Positions 1 through 31,620 of a stretch of 64,000 nucleotides of DNA are shown here, piece after piece. This DNA comes from a virus, in IMG/VR virus record IMGVR_UViG_3300035204_001027, positions 31,512-95,511 of that record, one strand, 5' to 3'. Position 1 is the stretch's first letter. Each line of letters begins with the position of its first letter. Below the pieces are notes generated by a model, which worked only from the letters and a program-made list of their open reading frames with translations, made no database searches and was not told the origin of the DNA. The translations under genes were made by a program, and so were the position numbers.

Positions 1-642
1 GTCGTAGTAAGCGATGGTGGAGCCAAAGTCCGTGGCATCTATGACTTTACTAATGAAGTCAAAAAGGTGAAGGGCGTTGGTGATGAGATGGGCTTCCGTC
101 TAATCGTTAACAATTCTTTTGACCGTAGCTTACGCATTAGCTTCCAACTTGGATTGCTGCGCCTAGTCTGCACCAATGGAATGACCACTCTTGAGAAAGA
201 GTTCGACCTAACCAAAAAGCATTCTGCTCAATGCAAACTTGATGACCTATTGACAGATGACAATCTGGACAAGGCTTTTAACAAGTTCGAGGCTTCTCTC
301 GGAGTGTACAGTCGTCTTGCTGATGTAAAGCTCAAGCAAGAAGAGGGGCTGAATGTTTTACAGCGTTTGGCAAAGGCTAACACCATTAGTGAAAAGCTGC
401 GCGAAGGTATCGCTCACATTTGGAATAATCCAACCTACTCGGAGGATAAGGCTCGCAACCTTTACAACCTCAACAATGCCGTGACCCAGTACGTCACTGA
501 AAACGTGTCAGAGGACAGGTTTGAGTACGCGAACCGTATCACCAGCCAAGTGCTGCGTTCCTTCAACCGTGCTACGAAGAGCAAGTCATCGCTGACCAAG
601 CTGACCTCTGCTCTCCCTGCACCAGTGGTTGCAAATAACTAA
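1..642 (+). CDS. DUF932-family phage protein, 5'-truncated by window edge
   Basis: Frame is open from base 1. The N-S-F-D...RLVCTNGM motif is characteristic of DUF932. Confidence 0.7.
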   Translation, partial: VVVSDGGAKVRGIYDFTNEVKKVKGVGDEMGFRLIVNNSFDRSLRISFQLGLLRLVCTNGMTTLEKEFDLTKKHSAQCKLDDLLTDDNLDKAFNKFEASLGVYSRLADVKLKQEEGLNVLQRLAKANTISEKLREGIAHIWNNPTYSEDKARNLYNLNNAVTQYVTENVSEDRFEYANRITSQVLRSFNRATKSKSSLTKLTSALPAPVVANN

Positions 643-666
643 ATAATAAAATACAAATAACAAATC

Positions 667-695
667 GCTCACCCTTACGGGTGGGCATTTTTTTT
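667..695 (+). terminator. Rho-independent terminator
   Basis: GCTCACCC-TTAC-GGGTGGGC hairpin followed by A and T8, just after the 642 stop. Confidence 0.8.
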
Positions 696-782
696 GCTTG
701 ACTTCGGGGCCCGGGTTGTCAAGCTTTTTCGGTGTGACATATTGTCTCTTGACTTTCGGTGTTTTGTGTGGTACATTGTAGT

Positions 783-896
783 ATGAAATCCGATCACAGA
801 GAATTGTTGTTTGTTATTGGCCTTGGAATGGCCTCGTTTATAGTTATCATACTTACGGGAGTTTACATGGAAACAAAAGGATTTGGCACTTGGTGA
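783..896 (+). CDS. 37-aa single-TM micropeptide (paralog of 8038-8136)
   Basis: Leaderless ATG 5 nt after the -10. MKSDHRELLFVIGLGMASFIVIILTGVYMETKGFGTW. Not in the ORF track. Confidence 0.75.
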   Translation: MKSDHRELLFVIGLGMASFIVIILTGVYMETKGFGTW

Positions 897-945
897 GTAA
901 AAAAAGTGCTTGACAAACTGACGGAAACCTGCTATACTATTATTT

Positions 946-1107
946 ATGACAGTTAAAGAAAAGAAGAAGTTGGACTTTGTGTTGTTCATGCAAGTGGTTG
1001 CTGGCACACGCAACGTGAAACCTATTGACCGTTTGATGGCTCTCGCAAAAGATGTTGTCGCTATCCGTGACGGTGAAGAACCTAAAGAATCGAAGGAGCT
1101 TATTTAA
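946..1107 (+). CDS. 53-aa hypothetical early protein
   Basis: Leaderless ATG 7 nt after the -10. MTVKEKKKLDFVLFMQ... Confidence 0.65.
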   Translation: MTVKEKKKLDFVLFMQVVAGTRNVKPIDRLMALAKDVVAIRDGEEPKESKELI

Positions 1108-1108
1108 C

Positions 1109-1573
1109 ATGGAAAATCATTGGAACAAAAAAGTAGAATTACTCTATCGTAACTGTGGCACAAACTGGGCTGTGTTTATTCGTGGCGCAGCCGATGACGT
1201 AGAACAGGAGTTTTATGGTATGTATAACCACGGAGCGACTGACGGAGAGATTCAATGGCAAACACCAGAGAACGCTTATTTTTGGACTACTAGAGAAAAG
1301 CTCGAAAAGTGTCTCACGAACCGAGCATTGTTCTGGCTATTGAATCAAGACGGACACGAAGAATCTGACGAGGAAGAATTGCTACCCGTAGCGAAACAGA
1401 TGGCTGAAACTCTTATGGGTGAGATGGTTCAACAGTCGAACTTGATGACCTTTGGGAATACTTATGACACTTATGAACTTGGTGAAGTGTCAGCGGAATC
1501 GAGCGAGGAGCATATCAACAACGGCCCATCTACCGTGCAAGTTAACATCAGCAGATTAATGGGATCTCTATAA
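1109..1573 (+). CDS. Hypothetical early protein
   Basis: Track ORF 1052..1573. Start moved to ATG 1109, which has an upstream AAGGAG and follows the previous stop directly. Confidence 0.7.
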   Translation: MENHWNKKVELLYRNCGTNWAVFIRGAADDVEQEFYGMYNHGATDGEIQWQTPENAYFWTTREKLEKCLTNRALFWLLNQDGHEESDEEELLPVAKQMAETLMGEMVQQSNLMTFGNTYDTYELGEVSAESSEEHINNGPSTVQVNISRLMGSL

Positions 1574-1616
1574 AAAAGGGCTTGACAATCAAGCTGAAAC
1601 GTGCTATATTATACTC

Positions 1617-2345
1617 ATGAAACTACTTGGAATCGACACAAACGCAAAAACCCGTAAAGGCCAGAAAAAAGGTTATATGACGGGAATCTCTTACCTCGCA
1701 CCCAGCAATGCCAGCGGTGTGATGAACACTTGCCCATCAGCGAGCAAAGGCTGTCGTGCAGCTTGCCTGTTTACGTCAGGGAGAGGCCGTATGAATCCTG
1801 TTATGGAAGCTAGAATCAACAAGACAAAACTTCTTGCCAGTGATTCGCTGTCATACTTAAAACAGCTTAAACGTGAGATTGAAGCTCTAATGAAACGCGC
1901 AGCGAAGAATGATAAAACCGCCTGTGTTCGTCTCAATGGCACTAGCGATATTGCTTGGGAGGAATACTTGTTAGACGGAAAGAATATCTTTGAGCATTTC
2001 CCGAATTGTCAATTTTACGACTACACAAAGCGTCTGGCTCGTGTTGCTGATTATGCAAACGGAAAGTTGCCGAGCAACTATCACTTGACCTTTTCTCATA
2101 GTGAAAACACTAGCGAAGAAACTGTGAAAGATGTTTTGAATCGTGGCGTGAATGTCGCTGTGGTTTACAAAGACGTTTTGCCGGTAGAAGATTTCGGTGG
2201 TGTAGAGGTCGTCAATGGTGATGAAGATGATTTGCGTTTTTTAGATGCTATCGGAAAAATCGTTGGCCTAATCTATAAGAAAACTAAAGCAACAGAAGAT
2301 GAATGGAATGGATTTGTGCGCCTCACGAAAGTAGAGGTGGCATAG
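1617..2345 (+). CDS. Gene product 88 (GP88)-family protein
   Basis: TCP-A-S-GC--AC, RLNGTSD, FYDYTK, YHLTFS and GDEDDLRFLD motifs. Leaderless start. Confidence 0.8.
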   Translation: MKLLGIDTNAKTRKGQKKGYMTGISYLAPSNASGVMNTCPSASKGCRAACLFTSGRGRMNPVMEARINKTKLLASDSLSYLKQLKREIEALMKRAAKNDKTACVRLNGTSDIAWEEYLLDGKNIFEHFPNCQFYDYTKRLARVADYANGKLPSNYHLTFSHSENTSEETVKDVLNRGVNVAVVYKDVLPVEDFGGVEVVNGDEDDLRFLDAIGKIVGLIYKKTKATEDEWNGFVRLTKVEVA

Positions 2346-2405
2346 ATGATAGCTATAACAATTTTCATGTGTTGGTGTGCGTGGTCTATGCTCAAAAGAA
2401 TGTAA
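2346..2405 (+). CDS. Possible 19-aa hydrophobic micropeptide
   Basis: ATG immediately after the GP88 stop. MIAITIFMCWCAWSMLKRM. Confidence 0.35.
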   Translation: MIAITIFMCWCAWSMLKRM

Positions 2406-2454
2406 CTCTTAAATAGATAATATTAAATAGGTTAGTAAAGTATTACAATTAAAT

Positions 2455-2528
2455 AGTGGTGTGGCCAAGTGGTAAGGCGTTGCTCTGCAAAAGCGAGATC
2501 GTGGGTTCGACTCCCACCACCACTTCCA
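2455..2528 (+). tRNA. tRNA-Cys (GCA)
   Basis: Acceptor AGTGGTG/CACCACT, D-loop AAGTGGTAA, anticodon arm TTGCT-CTGCAAA-AGCGA, T-arm GTGGG-TTCGACT-CCCAC, discriminator U, encoded CCA. Confidence 0.93.
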
Positions 2529-2611
2529 CTTTGGCGGCCCGGGCCGTCAAGCATAAAAAAACTTTAAAAAATCGCTTGACAAATGGGCGTTTATGTGTTA
2601 TATTATACCTA

Positions 2612-2896
2612 ATGAAAAACATAAAACCTATCGACGGCGGCGAATCTTTTGCAGTACATCAACACATCATCCTAAAGAACTTCTGGGAGTATTACCTCGG
2701 AGAGACTGATGAAGATGGCGTGGCTTTTGGCTATGTGATGGGGTTTGAGAATGAGTGGGGCAGCGTCTATATGCCAGAGATTGAGCCTCACATTATAAGC
2801 ATTGCACGGGGCAGAGAGCTTGAAGATGTTATGCCTCCATTTAACTATAAGTGGGAAGAGTCTGCCCTTCAAGATTTTCTCGAAGAAAGTGCTTGA
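2612..2896 (+). CDS. DUF2958-like protein
   Basis: The W-Y-L-E-D-DG-AFG-V-G-E-E-G-V---E pattern resembles DUF2958. Leaderless ATG at 2612. The stop TGA lies inside the next -35. Confidence 0.6.
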   Translation: MKNIKPIDGGESFAVHQHIILKNFWEYYLGETDEDGVAFGYVMGFENEWGSVYMPEIEPHIISIARGRELEDVMPPFNYKWEESALQDFLEESA

Positions 2897-2928
2897 CAAA
2901 CAGGAGAAAGTGTGGTATATTATAGCAT

Positions 2929-3180
2929 ATGAAGTTACAAGAAGGAAGAGAAAGAGCAAGTAATCTGAAACTGGGCGCAGTCTATTTTCATGATAATGAG
3001 GCAAAACGGCTAGACCAAATCATAAGCTGTCAAGGTGTGTGGCTTGTTGATGCCGTTGGTGATGGGTATGGTGAAACTATCCCCTTTGATGAGGTCGGGT
3101 ACGCTGACCTTGATGAGGTGCAAGATTTCGTTGATGATTGCGAAGTGGCACTAGGAGAGAAAGCTCCTTTAGATTATTAA
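2929..3180 (+). CDS. Hypothetical acidic early protein
   Basis: Leaderless ORF behind promoter 2893. Confidence 0.75.
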   Translation: MKLQEGRERASNLKLGAVYFHDNEAKRLDQIISCQGVWLVDAVGDGYGETIPFDEVGYADLDEVQDFVDDCEVALGEKAPLDY

Positions 3181-3242
3181 AATTAATCCTTGACAAAGTG
3201 GTCAAGTTTGTGGTATTATTATATACAGTTGAGCGAGAAATC

Positions 3243-3254
3243 GTTCTTTGAAAA
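3243..3254 (+). promoter_or_regulatory. boxA-like antitermination element
   Basis: GTTCTTTGAAAA ~20 nt after the predicted start site of promoter 3190. Matches the rrn boxA variant seen in many bacteria. Confidence 0.6.
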
Positions 3255-3258
3255 TTTA

Positions 3259-3407
3259 AGGGTGAAATTGGTGTTGCTGGACTGGATAACAAGGTTCGAA
3301 GGTCAAACAAGGCGACAGCCTGACGCAGGAAAGCCCCTAGTGGAAGCGCGACGAAGCTAGACGGTGATACGATACTGGTCGGGTCAGGTTCGAATCCTGA
3401 CACCCTG
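3259..3407 (+). ncRNA. tRNA-like structured RNA (unit 1)
   Basis: AGGGTG (3259-64) pairs with CACCCT (3401-06), stacked on a canonical T-arm TCAGG-TTCGAAT-CCTGA. The ~120-nt interior has several stems. No anticodon arm and no CCA. Confidence 0.65.
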
Positions 3408-3415
3408 AACAATTT

Positions 3416-3716
3416 AAGCTGACGACGGTTGGCTTAAGGGAATGGCTGAATATCCCTCCAACATAAGGGGAAAGGCATGGGGCCACCTGAGAGAGTGTTA
3501 TCGCATGACTCTTGTGGTTTTAGTAGACTGGTTAACTTGAACTGTATTGTGTGCTGGTCTTGATGGTAATGCAGCAATCCATCTTCCCATTAATTTATAG
3601 GGTGAAGTAACAAACGTCCGCAAAGAGGAAACGGCCCAATAAACAAAGTGCAAGGAGTTGTGGCGTAACGGTGCATCGTGCCACGTAAAGCACTTAAAAA
3701 ATTCTCCCTTTTTTTT
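3416..3716 (+). ncRNA. Two further candidate structured RNAs (units 2 and 3)
   Basis: No + strand ORF, and each unit is preceded by AATTT. Closing stems are GGGAA-TGG/CCA-TC-TTCCC (3438-3588) and AGGGTGAA/TTCTCCCT (3599-3709), followed by a T-run. Confidence 0.5.
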
Positions 3717-3765
3717 GTCGATCATAAATACCTTTTTTTGATCGGCAATTTTTTTTGTCGATCAT
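3711..3765. repeat. Direct repeat TTTTTTGTCGATCAT x2 (40-bp period) with an intervening T-tract/GATC
   Basis: Copies at 3711-3725 and 3751-3765. Confidence 0.7.
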
Positions 3766-4020
3766 TCGTGAGCGGCTAATTCTTTTGCCAATCAATTATG
3801 GCAATTAATGAGCGACAAAGAGGGTAATTGTTTTGCAAGATAATACTGTTTTCGTGGGATATCTCCTCCAATAATTTCGTAAATAGCACGAATTTCACAT
3901 CGGAGAAATACCCCCTTTTTACGAAACTTAAACGTGATACTCATCCGGCGGCCCGGGGCCTGAAAAAAAATGAAAAAACCGCTTGACAAACCCTGATTTG
4001 TGTGGTATATTATATCCATA

Positions 4021-4326
4021 ATGAACGACAAAATAGAAAACCTAATAAACAACCACATCACTCGACTTCAGCAGAACATCCTTGATCGTGACCACTCGGT
4101 CATGGCGTGTGGTGCTCGCAGCAATCCATTCCACGCTCAACTCGATGAGATTGACCTCAAGAATATAGCCTCTCTCAGAGAGGGTCGCATCCCACAGTAC
4201 AGCGACCACATGGCTTGCCTCGTTGGTGATGGCCCACATGATATGAGCGAGTTTCGTGACCTGACTTACGAGAAGGAGCATGAGGCTGCTGGCCTCTATG
4301 AGGGGGTTGAGCCGAGCCTAACTTAA
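4021..4326 (+). CDS. Hypothetical early protein
   Basis: ATG 9 nt after the -10. The track start at 4000 lies inside the promoter. Confidence 0.7.
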   Translation: MNDKIENLINNHITRLQQNILDRDHSVMACGARSNPFHAQLDEIDLKNIASLREGRIPQYSDHMACLVGDGPHDMSEFRDLTYEKEHEAAGLYEGVEPSLT

Positions 4327-4449
4327 TAGGCTACCCAGCCTAGCCGCCAAAGCTGCGCTTGAGACACAGCGCGACGAGGGGCTAGGCTCAGGGCCCGGGC
4401 CCTGAAGAAAGTGCTTGACAAACACCTGTTTATGTGTTACATTATAACA

Positions 4450-4578
4450 ATGAAACGACGAATCAAAGCACGGGTCAACAGAGATGGCCTGATGGGCAGC
4501 GCGTCTCGTGTCCATCGTGTGAGGAAGGGCAAGGGCTCTTATTGTCGTAAGTCTAAACACAAGAAAAATGAGTGGTAA
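4450..4578 (+). CDS. arfA: ArfA-like alternative ribosome-rescue factor (42 aa)
   Basis: MKRRIKARVNRDGLMGSASRVHRVRKGKGSYCRKSKHKKNEW contains the ArfA signature KGKGSYxRKxKH. Leaderless. Not in the ORF track. Confidence 0.72.
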   Translation: MKRRIKARVNRDGLMGSASRVHRVRKGKGSYCRKSKHKKNEW

Positions 4579-4744
4579 CTATTATGATGATGAAGGTTAC
4601 TTGGGCGATCACTATGTCGGTCAAAGTAAGTATGACTATGTGCTCAAGGAGTGCAAGCGGTGTGGTCAGAAGGTAGACATGAGTTCTGATCATGCTATCT
4701 GTAATTCATGTGCCGATGCAATGGAGCGAGGGTGGGAGTATTGA
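4568..4744 (+). CDS. 58-aa zinc-ribbon protein
   Basis: CKRC...CNSC. Overlaps the end of the upstream gene. Not in the ORF track. Confidence 0.65.
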   Translation: MSGNYYDDEGYLGDHYVGQSKYDYVLKECKRCGQKVDMSSDHAICNSCADAMERGWEY

Positions 4745-4869
4745 TACTCTTAACCCTATTAATAGTAATAACTATTTGGTTGATGGTTAAAAGATACTGA
4801 GGGCCCCGGCCCTGAAAAAAGTTAAAAAAACTGCTTGACAAACAGCCATTTGTGTGTTATATTATACCA

Positions 4870-5076
4870 ATGATAAGCGAGATGGATAAGTTTAAAGAAG
4901 ATGCAGCTTTCAAGCTGTTTGGTCGCAGCCGCATACTTGCCATCGCTGGCAACGGGTGCGTGAAGTGTGGCGAGAGCGCGGTTGATTTCCGTGACGAACT
5001 CTCCCGCAAGGAGTACGGCATCTCTGGCTTGTGCCAGTGCTGCCAAGACAGCGTCTTTGGTGTGGAGGAGGACTAA
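4870..5076 (+). CDS. Small zinc-finger protein
   Basis: CVKC...SGLCQCCQD. Leaderless ATG at 4870. Confidence 0.75.
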   Translation: MISEMDKFKEDAAFKLFGRSRILAIAGNGCVKCGESAVDFRDELSRKEYGISGLCQCCQDSVFGVEED

Positions 5077-5255
5077 TGAGATTAAACGAGATTAGCCCAG
5101 AGAGCATGGGCATGAGGCCCACGGACAAGCCTAAATTGATAGACGCTACGCCTACGCCTATGCATGACCAAAAGGATTGGATTCAGGACAGTGATGGGAC
5201 ATGGGTATGTGATTGGTACATGGAGGACGGGTATGATGTCAGATGCAGAGATTAG
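5076..5255 (+). CDS. Hypothetical protein
   Basis: TAATG coupling with the upstream gene. MRLNEISPES... Confidence 0.55.
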   Translation: MRLNEISPESMGMRPTDKPKLIDATPTPMHDQKDWIQDSDGTWVCDWYMEDGYDVRCRD

Positions 5256-5382
5256 ATTAAGTGAGTTATTAGATAGCTTTAATAGTGAAGAAGAATGGCT
5301 AGCATATAGGGAATCTTATCCCTTAATACCAATAAGCTCAAATGATGATGTCCCTTGGAATTATGATATGAAAATCTTCTGA
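5233..5382 (+). CDS. Hypothetical protein
   Basis: 3' part of track ORF 5164..5382. GGAGG lies upstream of ATGATG. Confidence 0.45.
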   Translation: MMSDAEIRLSELLDSFNSEEEWLAYRESYPLIPISSNDDVPWNYDMKIF

Positions 5383-5451
5383 GGCCCCGGGCCTGAAAAA
5401 AAGTAAAAAAACCCCTTGACAAGAGGCTGTTTCTGTGGTATATTATGTCAT

Positions 5452-5697
5452 ATGAAAAACGATACAGTAACTCAAACCATCACCGAAGCCCAAGTCACCC
5501 AGCGCAAGCTGAATGAGATCAACAACAATTTCAACCTCACCGATGAGTACGTCGAGCATTTGGATCAAGCCGTGACTCAACTACTAGCTAACAAGGAACG
5601 CCTGAATAAGGCTCTAGGCATCCTCAACAAGCTGCCTTCTTCCTTGGAGGATAAGTTCGTCAAGGTCAATCCTAACCAGCAAGAACGCCGCTGGTAG
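5452..5697 (+). CDS. Hypothetical coiled-coil early protein
   Basis: Leaderless ATG at 5452. Confidence 0.7.
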   Translation: MKNDTVTQTITEAQVTQRKLNEINNNFNLTDEYVEHLDQAVTQLLANKERLNKALGILNKLPSSLEDKFVKVNPNQQERRW

Positions 5698-5791
5698 GCC
5701 TTGGCCCTTCGGGGCCCGGGCCCTGAAAAAAAAGTAAAAAAAGTGCCCTCCAGCCCTTGACAAGGGGTCATTTGTGTGCTATATTATGGTA

Positions 5792-6073
5792 ATGAAAAAC
5801 GATACTCCAACTTACACCCTCTGGAACGGCCCTACTCTAATCGACACTTTTGAGCATAACCGTGAGGGCTATGACTCTGCTCTAGAGCGGGCTTTCGACC
5901 TTGGCCCTAGTGCCTCCATCTACTCCACTCGTGATGACCTTGTGTGGTCTGCCGAGGCAGATGAGCCAAATGAGCCTAGCGATGCGTGGCACGATGCCGA
6001 CGCGCTTGCCTCTGCTGGATGGGGTACTGATGAGGACTACGGCTGCTATGGCCCAGAGGATTGCTGGGAATAG
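5792..6073 (+). CDS. Hypothetical acidic early protein
   Basis: Leaderless ATG at 5792. C-terminal DADALASAGWGTDEDYG. Confidence 0.75.
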   Translation: MKNDTPTYTLWNGPTLIDTFEHNREGYDSALERAFDLGPSASIYSTRDDLVWSAEADEPNEPSDAWHDADALASAGWGTDEDYGCYGPEDCWE

Positions 6074-6175
6074 CAATCTCAGGCCCCGGGCTGTCAAGCA
6101 AAAAAAGTTATTCACAATCGAAGAAAGTGCCTTGACAAACGGGCGATTCTGTGGTATATTATAAGTATAACAACG

Positions 6176-6379
6176 ATGAAAAACTACACACCGACAATCG
6201 CCCAGAGAACTAGGATGATGACCGCTATTGAAAGCGAGCTAGAACGAGAGAATCCGAATTATGCACATTTGACTATTACCTTTGGTATGATGCAGCACGC
6301 TGCTGATGAAGGTACAGGAGGAGACCATTACGACTATTTAGAGAGATTGTGGAATATGTTCAATCTCGAAAAAAGATGA
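6176..6379 (+). CDS. Hypothetical early protein
   Basis: ORF behind promoter 6132. Confidence 0.7.
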   Translation: MKNYTPTIAQRTRMMTAIESELERENPNYAHLTITFGMMQHAADEGTGGDHYDYLERLWNMFNLEKR

Positions 6380-6431
6380 AAAAAGTGCTTGACAAACGGT
6401 CGATTATGTGGTATATTTAGGTATTAAGATT

Positions 6432-6686
6432 ATGATAAACGAGACAGAACTATTACTGAATCAAGAGGTAGAAGTGACATTCCAACGAAGCCAACTTTGG
6501 GGCAAGCGTGGTCACGTTCTAGGCATTATGGCTGATGGTCGTACATTAGATATTGAGCTACATGGTGGCAAACGGGTATTCCTAGATGTCACTTTTGTGG
6601 ATGAGATTCGTGAACGTACACAGTTCGCCAAGACCGAGCAAAGCCTCGGCCCAATCGCTAACCATCTCATTAAGGATACGCTTTAA
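6432..6686 (+). CDS. Hypothetical protein (KOW/SH3-like beta pattern)
   Basis: ORF behind promoter 6389. Start at ATG 6432. Confidence 0.65.
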   Translation: MINETELLLNQEVEVTFQRSQLWGKRGHVLGIMADGRTLDIELHGGKRVFLDVTFVDEIRERTQFAKTEQSLGPIANHLIKDTL

Positions 6687-6688
6687 TT

Positions 6689-6919
6689 ATGAAACTCATT
6701 GTAAAGGAAATGCCCGCAAGGCAAAAGTTCTATCAGTTAGTAGATGCTGCGTGTTACGCTAGAATGGGATGCTCCATGCATGACCTACCTGATTTCCCAT
6801 ATAGTGATTACTATGATGATGAGATTATGTCTCATGAGGAAATGGTTAATGCAGCAGATATGTGCATTGAGGATCTAGTGCTTGAGCTTAAGAATGATAA
6901 CGAAGGATATTGGTTATGA
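6689..6919 (+). CDS. Hypothetical acidic protein
   Basis: ORF track. Starts 2 nt after the upstream stop. Confidence 0.7.
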   Translation: MKLIVKEMPARQKFYQLVDAACYARMGCSMHDLPDFPYSDYYDDEIMSHEEMVNAADMCIEDLVLELKNDNEGYWL

Positions 6920-6999
6920 GGAATTGGCTTGATATGTATGGTGGGTGGCTTGCGATAGTTCTCTATTTCATTCTAACAACTATTATTTGGAAATGGTAA
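6916..6999 (+). CDS. 27-aa TM micropeptide
   Basis: ATGA overlap. MRNWLDMYGGWLAIVLYFILTTIIWKW. Confidence 0.5.
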   Translation: MRNWLDMYGGWLAIVLYFILTTIIWKW

Positions 7000-7148
7000 A
7001 AAAACAAAAAGAACAAAAGCCTGTAATGGCTGAATTAGTACGCGTGTTAAAAGATAAGCCTAAAGGTCTTACTCTTAACGAAGTCAAAGGCAAGGGCTTG
7101 CAACTACCTTCTGGCCCTGCTCTAATCAATGGACAATGGACTTGGTAA
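6993..7148 (+). CDS. Hypothetical basic protein
   Basis: 3' part of track ORF 6945..7148, from ATG 6993. Confidence 0.55.
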   Translation: MVKKQKEQKPVMAELVRVLKDKPKGLTLNEVKGKGLQLPSGPALINGQWTW

Positions 7149-7150
7149 TT

Positions 7151-7297
7151 ATGAATGAAGAATATGCAAAACATCTAATGAAAGAATATAAAGAAGAAAG
7201 CCCATTTGAATTATGGGTGTGGTTCGTTGCTGCTCAATTGCTTTTCGGTATTATACTTATAGGCGTAATAGGTCTTTGTATGTGGATGGCTTCTTAA
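7151..7297 (+). CDS. 48-aa protein with C-terminal TM helix
   Basis: MNEEYAKHLMKEYKEESPFELWVWFVAAQLLFGIILIGVIGLCMWMAS. Confidence 0.55.
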   Translation: MNEEYAKHLMKEYKEESPFELWVWFVAAQLLFGIILIGVIGLCMWMAS

Positions 7298-7431
7298 TCA
7301 GGGGCGTCTAATAGAGGGCCGTAATAGTAGTTGTAAGGCGCTTTCTCATAGCGCCTAGGCTCAGGGCCCGGGGCTCAAAAAAAAGTAAAAAAACCGCTTG
7401 ACAGCACCCCATATCTGTGGTATATTATAGC

Positions 7432-7605
7432 ATGATTAAACGACAAGATTGGACTATCACCTTCGACGATGGCAGCACTGCATCCTACTTTAACATGACC
7501 TCTCTGGAGGCTGTGAGGTGCGCTGTGAGTGACTGGTATCCAGCCAAGCGTGTGGTGGCATGGGTGCCCCGTCAGGTGGACGTGTACAGCATAGCACTGG
7601 ACTAG
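7432..7605 (+). CDS. Hypothetical early protein
   Basis: Leaderless ATG at 7432. Confidence 0.7.
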   Translation: MIKRQDWTITFDDGSTASYFNMTSLEAVRCAVSDWYPAKRVVAWVPRQVDVYSIALD

Positions 7606-7609
7606 GGTC

Positions 7610-7669
7610 ATGCTGCTACTGGCTCTAATAGTGGTGTGGTGGGTATGGCTAGCAGTAGACCAGTATTGA
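7610..7669 (+). CDS. Possible 19-aa TM micropeptide
   Basis: MLLLALIVVWWVWLAVDQY. Its stop lies at the start of the next palindrome. Confidence 0.4.
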   Translation: MLLLALIVVWWVWLAVDQY

Positions 7670-7727
7670 GGGCCCGGGCCTTGAAAAAAGTCCTTGACAA
7701 GGGGTCATTTGTGTGGTATATTATAGT

Positions 7728-7901
7728 ATGACATTTAACAAAGGTGACAAAGTAGCACACAGGGATAACCCGATCCATTGGAGAGGTGAGGTGACAGAGG
7801 TAAAATTAAATGGGCGAATAAAGGTGATGCTCATTAACGGTAATGAGGTAGAGGTCGGGCCATATGTGCCATTGAAGCTAGATGTCTTTGCTGACGAATA
7901 A
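7728..7901 (+). CDS. Small SH3/KOW-like protein
   Basis: F-KGDKV...GEV-EV pattern. Leaderless ATG at 7728. Confidence 0.65.
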   Translation: MTFNKGDKVAHRDNPIHWRGEVTEVKLNGRIKVMLINGNEVEVGPYVPLKLDVFADE

Positions 7902-8037
7902 GCAATGACCCACCCCCACGGGGGGAGGGGGTACCCCCACCCCTATTCGAGGCCCGGGGTTTGAGACATGACCCGGATGGGGTGCCTCTCTAGAAAAAAG
8001 CCCTTGACAGATCGACACTTTCGTGGTATATTATGGT

Positions 8038-8136
8038 ATGAAAGATGATTATAGAGACATTTATTTCGTGATTTGCATCGGTATATTTTCCTTCCTCGCT
8101 ATTCTAGCAACAGGAATTTACATCGAGACGCTTTAG
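8038..8136 (+). CDS. 32-aa single-TM micropeptide (paralog of 783-896)
   Basis: MKDDYRDIYFVICIGIFSFLAILATGIYIETL. Leaderless. Confidence 0.75.
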   Translation: MKDDYRDIYFVICIGIFSFLAILATGIYIETL

Positions 8137-8246
8137 CCGTTCTTTTTGACTCGGCTCGACCCCTGATTCGGCCCCCGGGGTGCCTGTGAATAACTTTTTT
8201 TAAAAAACCCCTTGACAAAGGGTCATTTCTGTGGTATATTATACTA

Positions 8247-8411
8247 ATGAAAACGATAAAAAGGTTCAACGACGAATTCAATCGCATGTTTAACGATGAG
8301 ATCTTCATGCCGATGATAAAAATTTCAGGTTTACTGATTTTCCTCGCCATTATTTTGGATTTTGGCTTTCAGATGATCGAAGCAATCGATATTTTAACGG
8401 TGGGACCGTAG
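8247..8411 (+). CDS. 54-aa TM protein
   Basis: Leaderless ATG at 8247. Hydrophobic segment ISGLLIFLAIILDFGF. Confidence 0.65.
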   Translation: MKTIKRFNDEFNRMFNDEIFMPMIKISGLLIFLAIILDFGFQMIEAIDILTVGP

Positions 8412-8440
8412 ATGTCTCACCCTATATGATAAACTATACT

Positions 8441-8566
8441 ATGTTTGAAGATCAATTAGACGAAAACGAAATTTTAATGCGGAATTTGCTTGACAAAGTC
8501 TGCGAAGGCGTAGAAGTTCCCTCGGATTCAGAAAGTGAAGAGGCGAACGAACTACAAAACGGATAA
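8441..8566 (+). CDS. 41-aa acidic peptide
   Basis: MFEDQLDENEILMRNLLDKVCEG... Short ORF only. Confidence 0.4.
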   Translation: MFEDQLDENEILMRNLLDKVCEGVEVPSDSESEEANELQNG

Positions 8567-8856
8567 ATCAAAAGATGAAAGAGGGAGATTTAAAAAAAAA
8601 TGTTATTAGCAGTAATTATTCTGGTTTATGTATTCGGCTCGATGACTCAACGACTTTAAATGATAAAAACGACATGACTAAATGAGTTAAAGTATTCAAG
8701 TGGGGGCGTAACCCCCCCCTATTTTTGAAAAAAAACGCTTAAGTTTTACGCTTTTGCGAAGGTGGGGGGGCTATTTATATCTGCCCGAGACTTGTCGAAA
8801 TACCTGTTTTTCATATATCTCTTGTAATATACTGATATAACTGTGTAATCACTTAT

Positions 8857-9087
8857 ATGGAACTTCTATTAGAAGGCTATCCAGTGATCGTCCATACAGA
8901 CAAAATGGGTAAGTGGCAAAATGATTTAGTCGAAATTGTAGACGCTGCTGAAGATCTATCCTCCTCGCACTATAAGTACATTATCAATTACCTTTACTCC
9001 GAGGGGTTCGTACTAGATAGAAGAGTAAATACTCATATCTTAGATAAAAACAACAACATCATTAAAACATATACAGGATTGGAATAA
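8857..9087 (+). CDS. Hypothetical protein
   Basis: ORF track. First gene after a GTGTAA motif. Confidence 0.7.
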   Translation: MELLLEGYPVIVHTDKMGKWQNDLVEIVDAAEDLSSSHYKYIINYLYSEGFVLDRRVNTHILDKNNNIIKTYTGLE

Positions 9088-31083: not shown

Positions 31084-31620
31084 ATGGAAATAGACTTTAC
31101 ATCAAAAATTAGGGCCGCTGACGAATGTAGTTGCGGAGTATGCGACGAAGAAGATTGCCAGTGTCCTTGCCATTGTGAAAAAAACGAACTCCCCTCTCAA
31201 GAAGAGTTGATTGCTTTTTCCATTGATATCGTAAAGATATTTGAAAACAAGGTAAAAGCTCATAACGAAGCTTTTCCAAAGAATCAGGTATCTGTGGATG
31301 ATCTAAAGAAGATGTTTATGCAAGGAGCGTCTTCTGAAAATCGTGGCGGTTTTTCCCTCGTTGAACTTGGTTTGGCGGGGGTTAATGCTTTTCTGAATTT
31401 GAAAGCTGGAAACTGCGGTTCTTACGAAGCCAAGTTTTCTTTAACTCTACCAAAGGAATCTTTAAACGTCTCTGCTCATCTATCGCCAAACGAAGAAGAT
31501 TTCAATAAAGCAAAAGAAGATATAACAAAATATAACTTAGATATTTCAAAAGCTAAGAGTTCAGAAGATTTTTATATTGAAACTCAAGATCAAGTTAGAA
31601 GAAGGTGGATAGAATACTAA
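31084..31620 (+). CDS. Hypothetical head-module protein with N-terminal Cys cluster
   Basis: CSCGVCDEEDCQCPCHC. The KVKAHNE...LKK...G segment resembles DUF5824-like phage proteins. Confidence 0.55.
   Translation: MEIDFTSKIRAADECSCGVCDEEDCQCPCHCEKNELPSQEELIAFSIDIVKIFENKVKAHNEAFPKNQVSVDDLKKMFMQGASSENRGGFSLVELGLAGVNAFLNLKAGNCGSYEAKFSLTLPKESLNVSAHLSPNEEDFNKAKEDITKYNLDISKAKSSEDFYIETQDQVRRRWIEY

Follow-up and report, generated by a model that had tools for sequence, protein, structure and literature searches.

A promoter-led array of folded RNA modules in a large uncultured marine phage includes a tRNA-shaped RNA of an uncatalogued family

What does an early phage promoter transcribe when no protein gene stands behind it? 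The question is raised by a promoter at positions 3190–3219 of a 64,000-nucleotide (nt) stretch of viral DNA (IMG/VR record IMGVR_UViG_3300035204_001027, positions 31,512 to 95,511), hereafter the window, which forms the last 64 kilobases (kb) of a 95.5-kb record with an estimated completeness of about 50%. An original prediction, made from the letters of the window, held that this promoter and a boxA-like sequence drive three unannotated structured RNAs (units 1 to 3), one of them a tRNA mimic, with no open reading frame (ORF) behind the promoter. We found no credible ORF between 3190 and 3760; the only frames are one of 56 amino acids (aa) with a TTG start inside the promoter and one of 32 aa inside unit 2. 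The indels between related sequences have lengths that are not multiples of three, so the stretch is non-coding. Comparison with relatives shows 3190–3756 to be a conserved, protein-free, promoter-led array of predicted folded RNA modules, much as had been proposed, and unit 1, a tRNA-shaped RNA, is a real, virus-only RNA family.

Relatives of unit 1 were collected by pattern scans of IMG/VR and Joint Genome Institute (JGI) metagenome contigs, which gave 66 loci (labelled with L numbers below) and 44 distinct sequences of 124–173 nt. All 44 come from uncultured virus or metagenome contigs, and marine samples predominate. The same pattern run on 185,579 prokaryote species (one genome each) returned 26 chance matches in other sequence, all of them without the T-arm. 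The covariance model R1 scores members of the family at 85–152 bits and ordinary tRNAs at no more than 26 bits, and it finds exactly one copy per locus, including a single copy in the whole record. The checks named with the original prediction included matches to known families and covariation among homologues. Against Rfam (cmscan, 4,227 families, E-values up to 10), no family matched unit 1, and ARAGORN called no tRNA or transfer-messenger RNA (tmRNA) in units 1 or 3, while the collected homologues carry the compensatory changes described below.

The fold of unit 1 was obtained with RNAalifold on a MAFFT alignment, together with pair counts. Comparative evidence supports a cloverleaf-like RNA in which other predicted structure occupies the positions of the D-arm and the anticodon arm (Table 1). 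Over all pairs, 96.9% of the alignment cells are paired, compared with 31–39% when the partners are slid; eight pairs are changed on both sides, and none of 500 shuffles reaches the observed covariation. Both sides are changed in 24 and 26 sequences for the acceptor pairs 2:71 and 3:70, respectively, and the T-stem pair 191:205 is swapped from C-G to G-C in four sequences. G-U pairs are frequent, and therefore the fold belongs to an RNA of the + strand and not to the DNA. The T-arm thus sits on an acceptor-like stem, as anticipated, with covariation in both, and a variable hairpin and a 9-base-pair (bp) helix with its junction are found where the D and anticodon arms had been expected to be replaced. 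The discriminator position always holds A, and the sequence encodes no CCA. Beyond the acceptor/T-arm stack, about 50 positions are invariant or nearly so. When unit 1 is compared with a tRNA, it has the 7-bp acceptor on a 5-bp T-stem with a 7-nt loop, and we found no D-arm, no anticodon arm with a 7-nt loop and no match to RF00005 at E-values up to 10.

The original prediction also located CCTGAC at 3319–3324, correctly, and suggested that it competes for the T-stem strand GTCAGG; it is better explained as one strand of helix P3. A CCTGAC:GTCAGG helix is compatible in 98% of cells and shows no gain over shuffles (33/500). As a conserved fold it was rejected, because it is lost in those four sequences in which the T-stem pair covaries. 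Positions 3319–3324 can pair either way because 3378–3383 and 3383–3388 are near-repeats, and a transient switch to this helix is possible. By eye, 3320–3333 resembles a hammerhead core, but this reading was likewise rejected: the stretch lacks both the conserved A and a stem II, and none of the Rfam ribozymes matched. In two relatives (L039:3–144 and L089:41–173), the acceptor is a mixture, its 5′ strand being of one type and its 3′ strand of another, so that mismatches arise; such mixtures suggest either chimeric assembly or recombination among variants.

Unit 2 is a full-length copy of a known RNA, manA, and hence is not new. It had been described as unannotated, at about 3438–3588, and the confident match to a known family that the original prediction named as removing novelty was found for this unit only. 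A cmscan of 2300–4200 under the same settings gave, beyond manA and a tRNA-Cys gene (2455–2528), only chance-level matches. The copies of manA in relatives score 68–74 bits. They directly follow the tRNA-shaped RNA in four loci (L002, L088, L097 and L052) and follow another, intervening module in four others (L027, about 100 nt further on, L031, L034 and L037). In L088 and L097, a stem-loop and a U-run lie directly 3′ of manA and read as an intrinsic terminator. The manA motif was first proposed as a cis-regulatory element of 5′ untranslated regions (UTRs) (Weinberg et al. 2010, PMC2864571). Here, however, its position is not that of the 5′ UTR of a protein gene, as a further hairpin module and terminator-like hairpins come next. 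The gene beyond the unit has its own promoter at 3983–4011; together with the terminators after manA, this leaves no gene downstream within the unit. The arrangement argues that manA would act here as a free-standing RNA and not as a 5′-UTR switch. In contrast with the published motif, manA stands here in the middle of a protein-free operon with terminator-like hairpins at its end, and its neighbour is a tRNA-shaped RNA.

Unit 3 had been taken as one RNA closed by a terminal stem; instead, we found a two-tier hairpin, named module H, followed by two terminator-like hairpins. Module H has eight distinct copies in relatives, in which RNAalifold keeps six pairs through two-sided changes, and its inner stem shows a change from U-A to C-G. 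By locus, it is placed before (in L008 and L013), after or apart from the tRNA-shaped RNA. Units 1 and 3 share their start, as noticed earlier: the same 8-mer stands at 3259 and 3599, at a helix-junction boundary in both. The hairpin at 3646–3716 (−16.3 kcal/mol, z −0.38) is not significant alone; it is near-identical in L002, and no further relative was found. It would presumably serve as a terminator. A match to LhrC at 3639–3755 (20 bits, against a gathering score of 110) was dismissed as chance.

Between promoter and unit 1, the leader carries the boxA-like motif that the original prediction had seen after the promoter. This 11-mer has a single exact match in the window and is thus absent behind the 15 other promoters of the same type. 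Of 47 distinct upstream contexts from relatives, 26 have a motif of the form G[TC]TC[TG]TTGA[GA]A at most 45 nt after the −10 element. Gram-positive boxA of ribosomal RNA (rRNA) operons (rrn) has a G at position 8. The 11-mer agrees at 10 of 11 positions (G for A at position 8) with GYTCTTTAANA, a consensus that is gamma-proteobacterial (PMC5725501). A different hairpin with a GAAA/GGAA-type loop occupies the place of the leader hairpin in five relatives (L023, L036, L074, L079 and L027). Hairpin and motif together may be read as the boxB-then-boxA order of rrn leaders.

The modules are separated by AAUUU spacers. AATTT had been reported before each unit, and the copies at 3253, 3411 and 3592 indeed mark the exact unit boundaries. 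Among the 44 relatives, AATTT lies no more than 12 nt upstream of unit 1 in 24 and no more than 12 nt downstream in 33, while its background in the window is 3.5 per kb, which amounts to a strong enrichment at the two ends of the unit. RNase E prefers RN/WUU, which AA/UUU fits, and the spacers may be RNase E-type cleavage sites.

Modules are reshuffled between relatives, and other, unrecognised modules take the places of manA and H elsewhere, while the same promoter type stands upstream of the arrays. In roughly 19 of the 44 contexts (L003, L022, L028, L040, L044, L048, L060, L062, L092, L101 and others), the tRNA-shaped RNA is immediately followed by an unrecognised module of about 75–90 nt; its closing 7-bp stem occurs in two fully compensated versions, and in those loci that were scanned it matched nothing in Rfam. 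The arrays also contain at least four further hairpin-closed modules of different kinds, each bounded by AAUUU-type spacers. Extra modules were seen downstream of the tRNA-shaped RNA in L008, L013, L029, L100, L049, L027 and L059, and upstream of it in L044, L045, L052, L060, L062, L084, L093 and L101. The arrays hold about two to six modules, of which Rfam covers only manA and tRNA.

Table 1. Features of the RNA array, with positions in the window.
Feature	Positions	Strand	Details
sigma-70-type early promoter	3190–3219	+	−35 TTGACA 3190–3195; 18-nt spacer; TG-extended −10 TATTAT 3214–3219; score 11/12
leader hairpin	3231–3246	+	6-bp stem, GAAA loop; just before/overlapping the boxA-like motif
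boxA-like motif	3243–3253	+	11-mer; sole exact match in the 64-kb window
AAUUU spacer 1	3253–3257	+	module boundary
tRNA-shaped RNA (unit 1), uncatalogued family	3258–3408	+	44 distinct homologues; covariation; model R1
P1, acceptor	3258–3264 with 3401–3407	+	7 bp; discriminator A3408 next; pairs 2:71 and 3:70 covary
J1/2	3265–3271	+	invariant UUGG where a D-loop would contact the T-loop
P2, variable hairpin at the D-arm position	3272–3317	+	length highly variable; three covarying base pairs
P3, at the anticodon-stem position	3319–3328 with 3375–3383	+	nine pairs; 99.5% of cells paired
conserved junction and variable hairpin P4	3329–3374	+	junction strands 3329–3334 and 3364–3374; three-way
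T-arm	3384–3400	+	5-bp stem; invariant 7-nt loop
AAUUU spacer 2	3411–3415	+	module boundary
manA RNA (unit 2), Rfam RF01745	3415–3593	+	59.7 bits, gathering score 55.2; E 1e-12; model 1–192 of 192
AAUUU spacer 3	3592–3596	+	module boundary
module H, two-tier hairpin	3596–3642	+	47 nt; outer stem 3596–3602/3636–3642; inner stem 3615–3619/3627–3633
terminal hairpin	3646–3716	+	3646–3651/3690–3695 plus inner stem; A-run; U8 tract 3709–3716
second terminator-like hairpin	3716–3756	+	U8 tract 3749–3756; −12.9 kcal/mol, z −3.8; 1 of 200 shuffles as good

The explanation that we consider probable is that this is a protein-free early RNA operon, in which the tRNA-shaped RNA would be a trans-acting look-alike of tRNA with a phage-specific domain. 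Host RNA polymerase would start at the strong sigma-70-type promoter, and the motif in the leader of about 30 nt would most probably recruit the antitermination complex of the host (NusB/NusE), as happens in rRNA operons, which would let an untranslated, highly folded RNA of about 500 nt escape Rho. The transcript would consist of three self-contained modules, a 150-nt tRNA-shaped RNA, a manA RNA and a 47-nt hairpin RNA, and would end at one or two intrinsic terminators. The modules would most probably be freed as stable RNAs through the tRNA-processing route of the host: RNase P would act on the tRNA-shaped module at its 5′ side, the A/U spacers would receive RNase E-type cuts, and the 3′ end would be trimmed and perhaps receive CCA, since none is encoded. 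The tRNA half would then bring the RNA to a tRNA-binding factor of host or phage, while a purpose specific to the phage would fall to the conserved extra domain. The free variation of acceptor pairs 1–3 argues against a specific aminoacyl-tRNA synthetase, and the strictness with which the RNA is conserved beyond its tRNA-like half favours a specific partner over a mere processing handle. The earlier suggestion of a decoy for tRNA-binding proteins would be compatible with such action in trans. Neither a gene for a CCA-adding enzyme nor a Ro gene (TROVE domain) was found in the 95.5-kb record, which is weak evidence as the record covers about half of the genome.

Several observations weigh against this explanation. 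The relatives of unit 1 were gathered with patterns covering parts of the conserved core, which inflates the apparent invariance there. However, when only the 3′ core was used for scanning, the same viral contigs came back, and they carry the 5′ motif unless that end is missing, as in L007, which stops at the contig edge; the invariance of the 5′ motif is therefore not merely a search artefact. At acceptor position 1:72, half of the variants have A opposite G and thus no pair. Helix P3 consists mostly of invariant pairs with one compensatory event (L099), the divergent member L012 has two U-U mismatches in it, and P3 and P4 are both supported by few independent changes. The folding energies of single sequences in units 1 and 3 are no better than those of shuffles (z −0.28, +0.48, −0.76 and −0.38), so that the case for these units rests on covariation; moreover, the consensus fold of unit 1 differs from its minimum-energy fold. 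As for the leader, the boxA-like motif is one mismatch away from the gamma-proteobacterial consensus, and about 21 of the 47 related leaders have no match to the pattern.

The main rival explanation, to which we assign a minor though real probability, is that the tRNA-shaped module has no function in trans and works in cis as a processing or stabilising handle that defines the ends of manA and the other modules. Such "tRNA punctuation" has precedents in mascRNA and in mitochondrial transcripts. It would account for the presence of exactly one copy in each array at all loci, for a place in the array that varies while other modules always flank the tRNA-shaped RNA, for the freedom of acceptor pairs 1–3 to vary, as expected if shape alone matters, and for the absence of an encoded CCA. 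What it leaves without explanation is the near-invariance of those roughly 50 positions beyond the acceptor/T-arm stack across arrays that are otherwise reshuffled, including the junction at 3329–3334 and 3364–3374, which is conserved though RNase P recognition needs neither strand. For such a purpose an ordinary tRNA would do, for example the tRNA-Cys 730 nt upstream.

We regard it as improbable that 3190–3980 is a long regulatory 5′ leader, in which manA would act as a riboswitch, and the remaining folds as attenuators, on the genes from about 4000. These genes do lie on the same strand, and manA was originally proposed to be cis-regulatory in 5′ UTRs, as cited above; but two terminator-like hairpins with U8 tracts close the unit, the next genes have a full-strength promoter of their own, manA of L088 and L097 directly precedes a terminator-like stem-loop with a U-run, and the modules are reshuffled between phages irrespective of what lies beyond. 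Still less likely, and already largely refuted, is the reading of unit 1 as an RNA that enters the ribosome, be it a reduced, tmRNA-like one or one aminoacylated in some other way. The acceptor/T-arm stack with its invariant discriminator A, as well as a D-loop-like UUGG that lacks a D-stem, much like that of the tmRNA tRNA-like domain, would fit this idea. Yet ARAGORN gave no tmRNA, no Rfam tmRNA model appeared even at E-values up to 10, a length of 124–173 nt is too short for the pseudoknots, and pair 3:70 is G-C, U-A or C-G and never G-U, whereas alanyl-tRNA synthetase (AlaRS) needs G-U at 3:70. A tag frame through 3326–3362 was considered and rejected, as the frames there are not conserved between the types of P4. 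We give the lowest credence, close to none, to the view that the region acts as DNA, in the form of a replication origin or an array of protein-binding sites, or that unit 1 is a decaying tRNA pseudogene, with the folds being incidental. An iteron-like non-coding element just downstream (3744–3830) and the unremarkable folding energies of single sequences speak for it; against it stand compensatory changes with many G-U pairs, which are sensible only in + strand RNA, the same core kept in 44 distinct variants, and the presence of manA, an established RNA family.

Among known systems, the closest analogue of the tRNA-shaped RNA is species 1 RNA (rnaC) of phage T4. The tRNA cluster of T4 yields two stable RNAs whose role is unknown (PMC3014915). 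The T4 rnaC is a 139-nt stable RNA that lies, with rnaD, at the end of the cluster and shares its transcript with other small RNAs; it has a canonical T-arm and a 7-bp acceptor-like helix at its end with non-tRNA structure between. The two RNAs are not homologous: R1 gives rnaC 16.7 bits, within the range of 8–20 bits of the T4 tRNAs (filters off). The tRNA-like part of rnaC is its 3′ 92 nt behind a 5′ extension, unlike that of the tRNA-shaped RNA. In T4 there is no manA partner, and no dedicated boxA-led promoter was seen.

The original prediction had compared unit 1 with tmRNA and YrlA Y RNAs, whose tRNA-like domains also stack an acceptor on a T-arm with the D and anticodon parts replaced. 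The likeness does not extend to their defining features. Compared with tmRNA, unit 1 has neither a tag frame nor G3-U70, and it keeps a four-way junction, unlike the tmRNA domain; compared with bacterial Y RNA (YrlA), no Ro-binding stem was identified in unit 1 and no Rfam family matched. GOLLD and ROOL RNAs are found near tRNAs in phages (PMC5737381) and are likewise structured phage-associated RNAs that often adjoin tRNA genes; they form RNA-only multimers and are far larger single RNAs, in contrast to the small modules in series here. The leader resembles that of rRNA operons with antitermination (boxB-boxA, NusB/NusE/NusA/NusG/SuhB), as a hairpin and then a boxA-like motif lead a long untranslated structured transcript. 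The phage unit, however, is only about 500 nt long, with no boxC identified.

The boxA-led, spacer-punctuated and shuffled layout suggests that some marine phages run "RNA operons" like miniature rRNA/tRNA operons. The tRNA-shaped RNA provides a second family of phage stable RNAs with a tRNA-like end, a kind known since species 1 RNA of T4; the new family is unrelated to that of T4 and far better sampled (44 variants, all viral), and its sharply conserved non-tRNA domain offers a clean comparative handle on such RNAs. The manA RNAs are reported to assemble in vitro into cages of 8, 10 and 60 subunits (2026 preprint, bioRxiv 10.64898/2026.07.01.735769). A bolder reading, which we consider unlikely, is that the operon is a shuffled "toolkit" of cooperating RNAs, in which the tRNA-shaped RNA, once enzymes of the host had matured and CCA-tailed it, would either be a client of the manA cage or serve as decoy or adaptor for a host factor directed at tRNAs, such as a defence nuclease or a toxin modifying tRNA ends. 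If true, it would give manA-type cages their first biological partner and would supply a function for T4-type tRNA-like stable RNAs, a riddle of 50 years.

Hairpin P4 (3335–3363 in the window and the same place in relatives) occurs in at least five types. Three of them expose a palindromic loop word (GCGC or AUGCAU), which could allow self-association through kissing loops, and two others form a small hairpin with a GACG loop, which is the loop word of the first hairpin of manA. At 3265–3273, an invariant single-stranded UGGU beside the acceptor would be complementary to ACCA, that is, to the 3′ end of the RNA itself after CCA addition. Such complementarity recalls the contacts of T-box and RNase P with tRNA 3′ ends.

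Just downstream, 3744–3944 is a conserved non-coding element with about five iteron-like repeats of a GGCAATT-type word and 70–80% DNA identity in relatives. Its orientation relative to the array varies between phages: in L040, L062 and L092 it comes straight after the array and points the same way, but in the window it is inverted. The element may be another RNA module, an origin-like site or a site for protein binding. A 50-codon ORF on the minus strand (3792–3944) was rejected, as relatives have stops in it, including L002 with 98% identity.

The source of the window is a large uncultured marine phage. The genes of the 95.5-kb record are nearly all on the + strand, and matches to PHROG families include a large terminase, a portal (weak), and tail-fibre and baseplate proteins. 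The large terminase has only about 24% identity to any terminase of cultured phages, which places the phage in an uncultured lineage, and blastn of the region against 50,697 records of cultured phages gave no match in near or distant mode. The sole tRNA gene of the record, tRNA-Cys (GCA), encodes no CCA and sits behind protein genes, outside the RNA operon.

The promoter of the array is one of 16 near-identical sigma-70-type promoters in positions 1–9000 of the window, where 35 promoter-like sites were observed and 16.8 expected. The 16 promoters lie between 900 and 8250 and are variants, almost identical, of TTGACA, a 17-nt spacer and a TG-extended TATATT; most have a GC-rich palindrome and an A-run just 5′, and they appear to be followed by one to a few small genes each. 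The same promoter cassettes are carried by related contigs.

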